Assembly (NCBI RefSeq): GCF_037042905.1
Contig: NC_087251.1
Location: forward strand, 8,372,001-8,436,000
Direction of reading: 5' to 3'
Source: Lytechinus pictus
Lineage: Eukaryota
Length of the DNA stretch: 64,000 nt
Shown: positions 2,745 through 64,000 of the stretch, in pieces
Layout: each line of letters opens with the position of its first letter
Numbering within the stretch: the first letter of the stretch is position 1
Position numbers and translations under genes: made by a program
Notes under the pieces: generated by a model
What the model was told of the DNA's origin: nothing
The model's database searches: none
What the model saw: only the letters and a program-made list of their open reading frames with translations

Positions 2745-5700
2745 CTGAAAAGACAAAAGGTACAACAAATATTCTAGTAAGCTCTTTTCATAAAGAATAA
2801 AGGATATCTCTTATTTCATCAAAAGTTAGATTTTGAAAAAGAATACTATGAATATATCTTTAGTGAAATACAGTAAAGTGGTCGACTAGCTTGATCAAAG
2901 GGTATGATGTTCAAATCAAAGTTCAATTTGCAAAAAAGAGGCCTTTTCATTGAAATCACCAAATTGATCCTCTCAATCCTTCTGTAAATAGTTCAAATTA
3001 AGACTGCTTTTAATTTGGCCTTTTCCGTATCATATAAGTGTAATGTCAAAGCGATACAAATTTATAGCAGGACGATTACAGCTGGTCTATAGAAGCTATA
3101 TCATCATATAAAACACTTTTTGATCATATATTTACCTATACGACACAAAAGACAAAAACAAGATCAATTCCTTAATGAATCTTTATATTCATCATCCCCA
3201 TTTTATCAGGTACTTATTACTAATATCTTTGCACTTACCTACATACATTTTTTTTCCTCTGGAATAGTATTATATTGTATATTAGTGTTACAGCATAAAC
3301 ATGCAGTACATTGGTATAATTGCCAAACAAATCTGATGTTTGATGATAATCATCAAATCTGCAATATCTATAAACGAATAATTAAAGTAACAAAAACCAC
3401 AGAACTGAAATCCCTCAAACCACTACTACCTATTGCCATCACTTGAAATGCATGTATTATATTAGAAAAGAGAGATATGCTGAAGATGCATCTTTGACAT
3501 TATGTCACTTTCCATGGTAGCTGCCACCCAACAATAGCATACATTATCAGACCTTTCTAACACTAAATAACTAAACAAAATATGCCTAAAACTTTTGTTA
3601 ACCCAGGCCTGAGTTTGGATGAAGTACAATACAGTTCAGAACATCAGATTTGGTATGCGTTTGGTTAAGGGTTGACTTTATGATATGGGTTATTAGCATT
3701 ACAAGCTTTCACTTACTTTTGTCTATCTGTCTTATAGCTGGAAGTGAGTTCATCAAATAGTTTGCTATTCATCTCCATCAGTGTCCTGAGTACATTGTAG
3801 ACCAAGGCAACAATTGTTCTTGGAAGAGGAAGAAAAAAAATACAAAGAGTTCAATTTCAAATTCAGAACTCAAAATTTGGAATGATTTTGTGCTAGCCAC
3901 TATGCCATATTTGAGTGACATTAAACATAATATCACCTAGTTATTGCCAAATTGAACCGGTCAATGTCTAAATATAAGGGTCGCATTTGATGAACCTGCT
4001 GCATGTAAAATTTATAGACAGTTATCTGTCGTCATACAGGGGTTCTACCCTTTGATTTTCATAATTAGCAATAAGGAATAATGGGGTCTGCCCTGTCTTT
4101 TTGTGCCATAAGGTGCCAATACCTGAACAAATAGTCTTTCATTGACAGTGTTGATTTGATCAGGGTTCCCAGCTTTTCAAGAAAACAAAATTCCCTGATT
4201 TTTCCCTGATGAAATTTAAAAATTCCCTGATAATCATTTAAACCCATTCCCAGTTTTGCGTGTTTTCTAAGTTGTTGCAGTGAATTAAATGTATTTTCAG
4301 TATAGAAACAATAATGTAAAACTAATTAGTACTATTACACAGGCATGTAATGGCCTCCCTTCTCCCCATACCAGCCATCCACCATACCCCATAACCACCA
4401 TAACCAGTCATTCAATGGATAGTGTTTTGATATGCAACAAAATATAACAGATTGACTGAATTTTGTGCTTTCGACTTTTGAGCTGACCAAAATTCCCTAA
4501 TTTTTCCCTCATTTGAGGCATTTTCCCCTGATTTGTGGTATTTTTTTTCAAATTCCCTGATTTTTCCCTGACTAGAAAAGTAAAATAATGTTCCCTTATT
4601 TCCCTGATGGGCTGGGAACCCTGTTTGATGAATCTCTGTACTCAAGTTAGGCTTTGCAAAACTAACTGTGGTTGATTCCCATCAAAGAATTAGGAAACAA
4701 AATGATGATTTGGAAAAAAAAATTATGATGAATACTGGGTGTGTGTATTACAAGTAAATAGCTTCAAATTGATCACTATTCATACAGCTTTGCATTCAGG
4801 AAAGATCATATGATCTTTTTATGATTAAGTAGAAGGAACGCCTCCGCAATCTCACTTGCATTATGCTATTCATATAATGCAGGATTGTTAAATCTGTGAC
4901 ATTAAAATATCAAACATTTTCTCTCTGACATTTAGTCCTTGAATATACAATGTAATAGTCCAGGAACATAAAGGAGCAGCGCTCTGACAGTCCTGTTAAC
5001 TTGCCTCACTATTCCCCTTTTTATCTTTGGAAACAATTACACCCTTTTAAAGTTTTTTAGGTAAAACGTACATGTACACATGCAACATACATTTGACAGA
5101 CTCCTTATAATTATAAGCTTCATAGAATATCAAAACAAATTTAGATGAATGATAATTTTCATAATTAGACAAAAAATTCTTTACTTGATAATAAAACCCA
5201 ATTTTTATTGACCTTAATTTACCTTTAACCTTAACTTGGAAACATGCTATTCATTTAATACATTTAGGATATCCAATAACCATCCCACACAAGATTCCCT
5301 TTGATTTATTTACAAACAAATAAACAAAATATTATCCTTAATCAAAGTTAACTGTTCTGATTTGGCCTTTGACCTTGACCCAACATTAAAATTAAATAAA
5401 TGATAATACCTGACCAACATTACACCCAAGTTTAACAGAATGAAGACTTACAATTTCAAAATCACCTTGAAAATAAAAATATTATAAAACTTTGGCTAAG
5501 TTTTCATGAGTTGATATCAGTTCATTGACCTTAAGTGATATTTGACATCGGCCTAATGTCCTGAAATTAGATCTATATCTTTGTCCATACTTAACCACTA
5601 TGTAAGTTACATGGACTAGGAATTCAGCTTTCAAAATCATCTCAAAAATTTACTTTCATATTCTTGGTAGTTTTTATATTGATGAGCCTGATTGGTTAAG

Positions 5701-62348: not shown

Positions 62349-64000
62349 TAAAATTAATTATTCAAAGAGAAAAATTAACAATGAAGGCACTTTCGTCAGT
62401 AAGTGTCATGCGGTTTCAAAACTTAGAAATTTATCTCCTTTTAGCTCCTTTTTGTCAAAATAAAATTCTTCTCCAGAGCGCCCCTTTTCATCTCTGATTA
62501 AGTACCCCAATTAAATGCCATTATTTACTTCTGATTAGGCACTACTTCTGATACGTGTCCCTTTTATTTTCTTGTTCGTTCAAAACTTTCAGTCTGTTAA
62601 ATGAAAGGTAATTGCAATTTGAGCCCTTATGTTTCTGTAGGAGCAGCGTAATTCCCATAGGATTTACATTTACAATGTACTTTGAAATCTAATGATAAGT
62701 GTAGTGTAGTGCCCCTTGAGGGGTGAAAATTTCTCAACTTTTCAGTTATAAAATTGACAAATTTTAGACAAAAGTCTCATTGTTTTGTTTTTCATAACTC
62801 ATTATTTTCTAATTTTAAAGGGCACATACCAAAATTGTGCACGAAATCCTTTAATTTCATATTGGAAAATGCTGAAGTGCCCCATGACAAGCTCTGTCAC
62901 TTTGCTCACTCACTTTCAAGTTTCTTCTTACATCTGTATGCATCTTACCCCAAGGAAAAATCCTGAGTACGAAAAACTTACTTAATCGAATTTGACAAAC
63001 TAGGTTATTCGCTTGTTTATCAAATAACTCTGTTTTTCAAGTAAAAAACTCAGTTTATCATTCAATAAACTATGTTTTTCATATTTTCAATTGAAAAAAC
63101 TAAGTTTATCACTTGAAAAACCTAGTTTTATATGTACATGTACACCAATAAACTGAGTTTTTGGGCGAAAAACTGAGTTTATCACCAATAAACTTAGTTT
63201 TTCAAGCGATAACTAGGTTTTTCATGAAAAAATGTTTTTCGATGATAAACTGAGTTGCTCTCGATAAAATTCAGCGATAAAACTCGAGTTTATCAGCTGA
63301 AAAACTAAGTTTATCGCCTTTATGGGACAAATGGCGGGACATACGCAGGTGTAGTGGAGCAGTGCAAAATTTACAGGCCCATTTTCATTTTGTGGGTGAC
63401 CTCGAAATCGCTCTAAAGTAAACAAGAGTTTACCTGAAACCCTAAGAAAGTGTCGTAGTTACATGTAACCCACTCCCTGGTTAAACTGTCTGAACATTTG
63501 CAAATGACCATGAATCTGAGTGATATTTTTATTAAATTAGAAAAGAATAGTTCAATTTACTGCCCATTTTAATTTTTTTATTGTTTGTTGAGTAAAAAGA
63601 AGGAAGAAATGTCATAGAACTTGAGTCCAGAATTTCAGTTAATTTTCATACTTCCTATCCTTGTACAGGATGAAATTAGATATCAGAAAACAACAATCAA
63701 ATCATGGGCGGTTATCAGTCAAAAACAAATTCTACGATTCAGTCCTAGTCTTTTTTCACAAGCATTCAATAACCACTTTTATAGCCTACATGTACATGTA
63801 TGTACTGTACTTGTAGGCATACATGTAAATGTATAATGTAAATGTGTGTTCATAAGTAGATAAAAAACAAATAACCTAAATTAGTCAAGACTTTGCCTAC
63901 ATGTACAAATGTTTTTTTTTTTTTATTCACTTGCAGAGTACAGTATACTGTACTGGCCTAGATGTATTTGTGCATTATGAAGTTTCAGAATAAACGAACA

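Follow-up and report, generated by a model that had tools for sequence, protein, structure and literature searches.

An excess of TACATGTA words around a Lytechinus pictus PP2A-B56 gene that probably stems from transposon excision

We analyzed a 64,000-nucleotide stretch of Lytechinus pictus NC_087251.1 (hereafter the window), which holds the gene for the PP2A regulatory subunit B56 and, in the non-coding DNA in and around that gene, an unusual number of exact copies of the palindromic 8-mer TACATGTA. The G+C content of the window is 35%, and its non-coding part is rich in repeats. The effect of the words on the B56 gene itself is probably nil. The gene, its exons, several of them recognized as open reading frames (ORFs), and the word field lie as follows.

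9608..56335, minus strand: PP2A regulatory subunit B56 gene (PF01603), scattered exons
56084-56335, 50645-50827, 27758-27988, 25829-26023, 10519-10716 and 9608-9832, minus strand: six B56 exon ORFs with a PF01603 match
near 54500, 38090 and 21830, minus strand: three further B56 exons, from a motif search
5069..63905, no strand: region with the 39 exact TACATGTA words, which are spaced unevenly

Across the whole window, the first of the 39 TACATGTA sites is at 5069 and the last starts at 63898, a density of about one per 1.6 kb, with 2, 6, 2, 3, 10, 2, 5 and 9 sites in successive 8-kb segments. An order-2 Markov model predicts 3.1 sites. As the null for all enrichment tests of footprint words, unless stated otherwise, we used 200 dinucleotide shuffles in 1-kb blocks; these gave a mean of 2.08 sites and never more than 7. 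Simulations under Markov orders 1 to 4 (40 per order) gave means of 2.05 to 8.25 and a maximum of 12, and TACATGTA ranked first by count among the 256 palindromic 8-mers in the window. An initial annotation of this DNA had reported more than 30 exact copies, far above chance; that claim is borne out (39 versus 2.1), and within the window the excess persists after dinucleotide correction.

Other words of the kind left by transposon excision were examined in the same way. TACCGGTA occurs 3 times against 0.24 expected, TACAGTA and TACTGTA (the +5 class) 24 times against 8.9 in shuffles (maximum 19), and TACATA and TATGTA (the +4 class) 97 times against 56.8 (maximum 87); none of the 200 shuffles reached the observed count for any of the three. 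TACCGTA/TACGGTA was found 6 times versus 2.2, a number reached by 2% of shuffles, and two of the six are the ends of an intact element. The recurrence of companion words that had been noted initially thus holds for TACCGGTA and TACAGTA/TACTGTA but not for TAGGCCTA, which has a single site, or for TAGCCTA/TAGGCTA, which is not enriched in the window (4 versus 4.4 shuffled). By far the largest fold excess among footprint-type words belongs to TACATGTA. Its one-mismatch neighbours are also overrepresented (93 versus 42.7, maximum 60 in 100 shuffles), with an excess as big as that of the exact class, as expected from the neutral decay of old scars; among them, TACATATA/TATATGTA are raised to 14 versus 7.3.

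In repeats, a word can be compared with sister copies of the same DNA. Three sites are relevant here.

62063..62070, no strand: TACATGTA as a six-letter insertion in a unit of a 163-bp repeat, the six letters being absent in 10 of 10 aligned sister units
63131..63142, no strand: chain TA-TG-TA-CATG-TA, about 12 letters longer than sister units of a short repeat (unit of ~20 bp)
43614..43621, no strand: TACATGTA inside a multi-copy repeat, whose other copies carry single-T insertions, with six-letter loss absent among the rows listed

An insertion of six or about twelve letters was seen at both sites that could be tested against sister units within the window. At 63131, all five sister units show a gap of 11 to 12 columns, as two stacked six-letter units would give. 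When the flanks of all 39 words and of other TA-bounded words were searched, a convincing paralogue was obtained only for 62063.

The words also stack. Ten of the 38 gaps between neighbouring TACATGTA sites are shorter than 150 bases (p=0.0008), and 9 of the 39 sites adjoin a footprint-like unit through a common TA, compared with 4.8% of plain TA sites (p=8e-5). Two of the four TACCGGTA/TAGGCCTA words have a TA in common with a TACATGTA (p=0.005). Chains of at least two units number 22, a count for which the list of units was picked with the excision hypothesis in mind; in 200 Markov simulations, such chains averaged 2.3 to 8.2 and never exceeded 14. The most informative chains are these.

45387..45404, no strand: mixed chain TA-CATG-TA-CCGG-TA-CG-TA, inside a CC..GG element
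32394..32411, no strand: mixed chain TA-CATG-TA-GGCC-TA-CA-TA
63782..63827, no strand: longest of the chains, TA-GCC-TA-CATG-TA-CATG-TA-TG-TA-CTG-TA, followed by two imperfect units and by the third TACATGTA of the series
36358..36371, no strand: double word TA-CATG-TA-CATG-TA, either a serial scar or a 6-mer duplication

Duplication of one six-mer cannot produce the mixed chains at 45387 and 32394. Separately, in two metagenome contigs (L027:141-160 and L093), a GGCC unit is chained between two TACATGTA words outside repetitive DNA, much as at 32394.

The initial annotation had named TA-flanked elements ending CA..TG (35311 and 19844), CC..GG (45072) and GG..CC (46737), and we found all four.

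35309-35997: non-autonomous element TA-CAG..CTG-TA, with a second, inverted copy, 83% alike, at about 239-980
19842-20378: decayed element TA-CAG..TTG-TA, 8 of 30 positions mismatched in the terminal inverted repeats
45070-46167: element TA-CCG..CGG-TA, with perfect 30-base inverted ends
46735-50007: element TA-GGG..CCC-TA, holding two nested copies of the 163-bp-unit repeat

With the second CA..TG copy, the window contains these four donor-type elements with matching ends plus one. The left TA of the CC..GG element doubles as the second TA of a TACATA word. Set against the three surviving CA..TG elements, the 36 excess words give a ratio of scars to elements of about twelve to one. The proposal that footprint type records the transposon family is supported for the CA class (39 versus 2.1) and, on three sites, for the CC class (3 versus 0.24), but not for the GG class.

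Taken together, these data suggest that most of the excess TACATGTA words are probably germline excision scars of TA-targeting elements of the Tc1/mariner type ending CA..TG. For TACATGTA, the footprint reading first put forward is the best of those considered, given the insertions at both sister-unit sites, the TA-sharing chains, the matching element ends, the +4 and +5 classes and the occurrence of the same word among germline Tc1 products. In the proposed sequence of events, an element inserts at TA and duplicates it, as is seen for the intact elements of the window. Transposase would then cut each end two bases in from its terminus, so that both flanks keep a 3′ overhang of two bases and the two overhangs are non-complementary, as known for Tc1 (figure legend in PMC4490562). 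End joining that retains and fills both overhangs, seen for Tc1, would yield TA-CA-TG-TA, six letters more than the empty site. If one overhang were lost, the +4 class would result, and if the stagger were three bases, the +5 class; the two are enriched here. So small a scar should be nearly neutral in introns, where it would persist and decay by point mutation. Finally, the TA of a scar could be reused as a target, building stacked chains in which end types can mix; reuse might be favoured in part by the likeness of CATG-TA to the consensus target of Tc1, given in PMC9635669 as CAYATATRTG. We consider it possible, but only tentatively, that such insertion-excision cycles are a major and self-reinforcing source of small insertions in this lineage, with end joining of both overhangs producing a uniform +6 scar that is favoured as the next target. 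TACATGTA works like a Tc1 footprint, but its membership of that class is only probable, as no empty orthologous TA, no pair of element and scar alleles and, in the 34 of 158 ORFs scanned, no transposase was seen.

The scale of the process within the window is modest. The 39 words of six added letters amount to 234 of 64,000 bases and involve 0.8% of TA sites, so the earlier statement that editing had reached much of the unique intronic sequence was overstated. Only one of the 39 sites lies in the 11.1 kb of DNA that is multi-copy within the window, compared with 6.8 expected (p=0.005), as would be expected if younger DNA had less time to collect scars; this test is weak, as it sees only repeats present twice within the window and the region is more repetitive genome-wide. 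None of the 39 sites falls in the 1,284 bases of the six exon-bearing ORFs, which is uninformative with 0.8 expected.

To look at other haplotypes, contigs from four runs of four studies were aligned to 30200-43700, which covers 12 of the 39 sites; the resulting tables were filled by repeat copies. Organism A is the more distant source among these contigs; in unique stretches, its sequence diverges by about 4 to 6% from that of the window. In the first record of run X1, only nine window letters are absent across a stretch of four sites, if the "gaps" of the record are taken as gap letters, so at most one of these four sites is empty there. On the same understanding, three records of run X13, which may be close to the source of the window, cover 9 of the 12 sites with no window letter absent. 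In the same alignments, three organism A records end at 32722, immediately ahead of the word at 32723, and one ends at 30890, immediately ahead of the word at 30891; these ends were not counted as evidence. At 32722-32798, one organism A contig is about 35 letters long, compared with 75 in the window.

Several observations weigh against excision as the source of the words. Since few window letters are absent in the X1 and X13 records, most sites seem to be old and common to a haplotype about 4% away. The initial annotation had looked to other haplotypes for a lone TA in place of the word; in that comparison, none of the 12 indel rows listed, of 221, was of six letters, and all came from repeat copies. 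At 62063, the site would be TA once collapsed, but most sister units read AA there and none TA, which requires a substitution before the insertion, and at 63131 the empty sisters show an offset TA instead of a clean one. The word at 43614 is probably a point change and not a +6 scar; among repeat copies around it, an extra T follows 43624 at 32,926 of a depth of 33,367 (run X1), and often also 43619. TAGGCCTA, the GG class, is not enriched in the window (1 versus 0.34, equalled by 27.5% of shuffles), and no transposase was found in the 34 window ORFs scanned, of 158. The flanks of 29 isolated sites have AYR at 8 of 58 half-sites (p=0.16) and are depleted of T at -1 (p=0.012), a weak flank preference. 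Another CATG lies within 20 bases of 18 of the 39 sites, compared with a background of 19.6%, an excess that fits serial scars and local templating alike. Published spectra add three points. The assay described in PMC4490562 selects in-frame products and is blind to +4; the typical somatic Tc1 scar is +4 (78%, according to PMC13148408 citing Eide and Anderson); and the typical scars of Sleeping Beauty are +5 and +4, with no TACATGTA among the eight footprints given in bioRxiv 10.1101/659086.

The alternative that survives best, which we nevertheless regard as unlikely, is that the words arose without transposons, by local duplication of CATGTA or by end-joining inserts templated by a nearby CATG, in DNA rich in alternating TA, CA and TG. 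The nearby CATG excess is what templating would leave, and several 8-mers made only of TA, CA and TG are enriched 2- to 4-fold in the window. Simple repeats do make TACATGTA elsewhere: of 120 metagenome loci selected for a double word, among the matches listed, 83 fall within runs of at least 20 alternating purines and pyrimidines. In the window, by contrast, such a run holds only one of the 39 sites. Among 45 TA/CA/TG words, TACATGTA is enriched 12.7-fold and the next word, which mostly overlaps TACATGTA, 5.4-fold, whereas the like-composed palindrome TATGCATA reaches just 1.1-fold (3 versus 2.8). The insertion at 62063 has no adjoining CATG to serve as template, and chains that join CATG to CCGG or GGCC are beyond the reach of slippage. 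Flank-templated hairpins are disfavoured by the 26 of 39 sites at which the palindrome lacks even a one-base extension. We rejected the metagenome double words as support for excision, as most are simple alternating repeats and an all-against-all alignment contained no usable empty sites in the output examined. Their spacers, in the 120 loci among the matches listed, were CATG in 28, GGCC in 2 and CCGG in none; in 50 viral loci, they were CATG in 3 and CCGG in 1.

It is improbable, though it would also make the words real excision scars, that they come from a family of other geometry, whose ends begin with CATG. A four-base stagger in the cut would there leave self-complementary overhangs, and their precise religation would yield TA-CATG-TA every time. 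This would explain the dominance of one +6 word, which contrasts with the mixed footprints that Tc1 and Sleeping Beauty leave. The TA-flanked elements of the window, on the other hand, begin with CAG, CCG or GGG and none with CATG, and TACAGTTA, the single-end word that a four-base stagger would leave from CAGT ends, is not clearly enriched (5 versus 3 to 4).

Least probable of all, by a small margin, is that TACATGTA is a functional motif, such as a selected site for a protein of the Irx/Iroquois homeodomain type or of the Myb type. PMC3520976 cites it as the site that Irx prefers and takes its high frequency in Phytophthora promoters to mark a binding motif and not a footprint, PsMyb37 was shown to bind it (PMC11134190), and most window sites seem common to the haplotype about 4% away. 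But binding predicts neither clean +6 and +12 insertions into repeat units nor TA-sharing mixed chains; nor does it predict that +4 and +5 words are in excess too, or that the one-mismatch excess matches that of the exact class in size. One site per 1.6 kb, across introns and inside transposon copies, would be dense for a selected motif.

The window has other repeats. At 28886-29847, about 1 kb is nearly all purine on the plus strand, as a decayed (GAAA)n-like tract, and at 31093-31700 tandem 11-base units in both orientations form nested inverted repeats. A TTAA-flanked element with long inverted arms lies at 36602-37212 and has by far the deepest contig coverage within 30200-43700; one contig of run X6 joins 36601 straight to 37209, so that haplotype has a single TTAA and lacks the element. 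A second TTAA-flanked element, with 36-base inverted ends, lies at 57751-58218. The element at 60533-63344 has inverted ends of 47 to 66 bases and internal repeats of ~20 bases, encloses copies of the 163-base-unit family, and shows no TA duplication at its ends. A dispersed element is made of tandem units of 160 to 192 bases and has a (GCC)n tract at its end with a conserved tail.

12140-13165, 14540-15240, 44047-44853, 47552-49476 and 60600-62352: copies of the dispersed element with 160-192-base units
7451-7598: fragment of the same element

Inside the GG..CC element, two copies of the dispersed element make up a tandem duplication of 959 bases, with 99% identity in the portion that was compared. 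No copies of the window's repeats were found in viral contigs or in metagenome contigs.

If the words are excision scars, they would matter beyond this locus. Natural excision rates of cut-and-paste transposons are hard to measure, as the usual outcome is either repair from the homologue or a scar that varies from case to case. If scars are uniform and can be counted, about one every 1.6 kb would be a fossil record of excisions, with which germline repair routes could be compared between lineages. Were the self-reinforcing cycles real, excisions could be dated and counted for each family, genome-wide, from the scar classes and the extent of their decay. In other eukaryotes where TACATGTA is an abundant "motif", among them Phytophthora with its Myb-bound one, it could then consist of co-opted scars. 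The words are also a warning for motif searches, in which TACATGTA would be called an Irx or Myb site. The excision mechanism itself is known; we did not find the density of TACATGTA or the dominance of +6 in print, nor a published description of this scar being in excess across an animal genome, in a search of papers available without subscription.

The closest known system is the germline excision of Tc1 in Caenorhabditis elegans. In Supplementary Data 3 of PMC4490562, the class reading TACATGTA makes up 24 of 103 germline Tc1 revertants in the wild type, 10 of 36 in lig-4 and 3 of 39 in polq-1, and the same study reports that total Tc1 reversion is reduced more than 20-fold in polq-1. TACATGTA is thus a proven germline product of Tc1, independent of ligase 4, and its formation at Tc1 probably depends largely on Pol theta. 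The word, the TA target and the CA..TG element ends are identical in kind to those of the window, and the variants TACATATA/TATATGTA, raised here, account for 8 of the 103 wild-type products there. The Tc1 data differ in coming from a frame-selected laboratory assay at one locus, with 26 classes, whereas in the window one word has become a fixed part of the genome, with a copy every 1.6 kb. According to PMC4490562, 45 wild C. elegans isolates carry fewer than 10 deletions at known transposon sites, and PMC3520976 calls TACATGTA a rare Tc1 footprint.

Sleeping Beauty and Tc3, as described in bioRxiv 10.1101/659086 and PMC5224488, share with the window the words TACAGTA/TACTGTA and TACATA/TATGTA, both enriched here; Sleeping Beauty differs in that TACATGTA, which lies outside its eight footprints, has the largest fold excess in the window. 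The remaining parallel is Phytophthora motif-1, or AM-20 (PMC3520976, PMC11134190), which is likewise TACATGTA and very abundant in the non-coding DNA of a eukaryote. There, in the accounts of these papers, it was read as a transcription-factor site, and the footprint idea was raised and dismissed, whereas the sites of the window act as insertions and stack with other footprint types.

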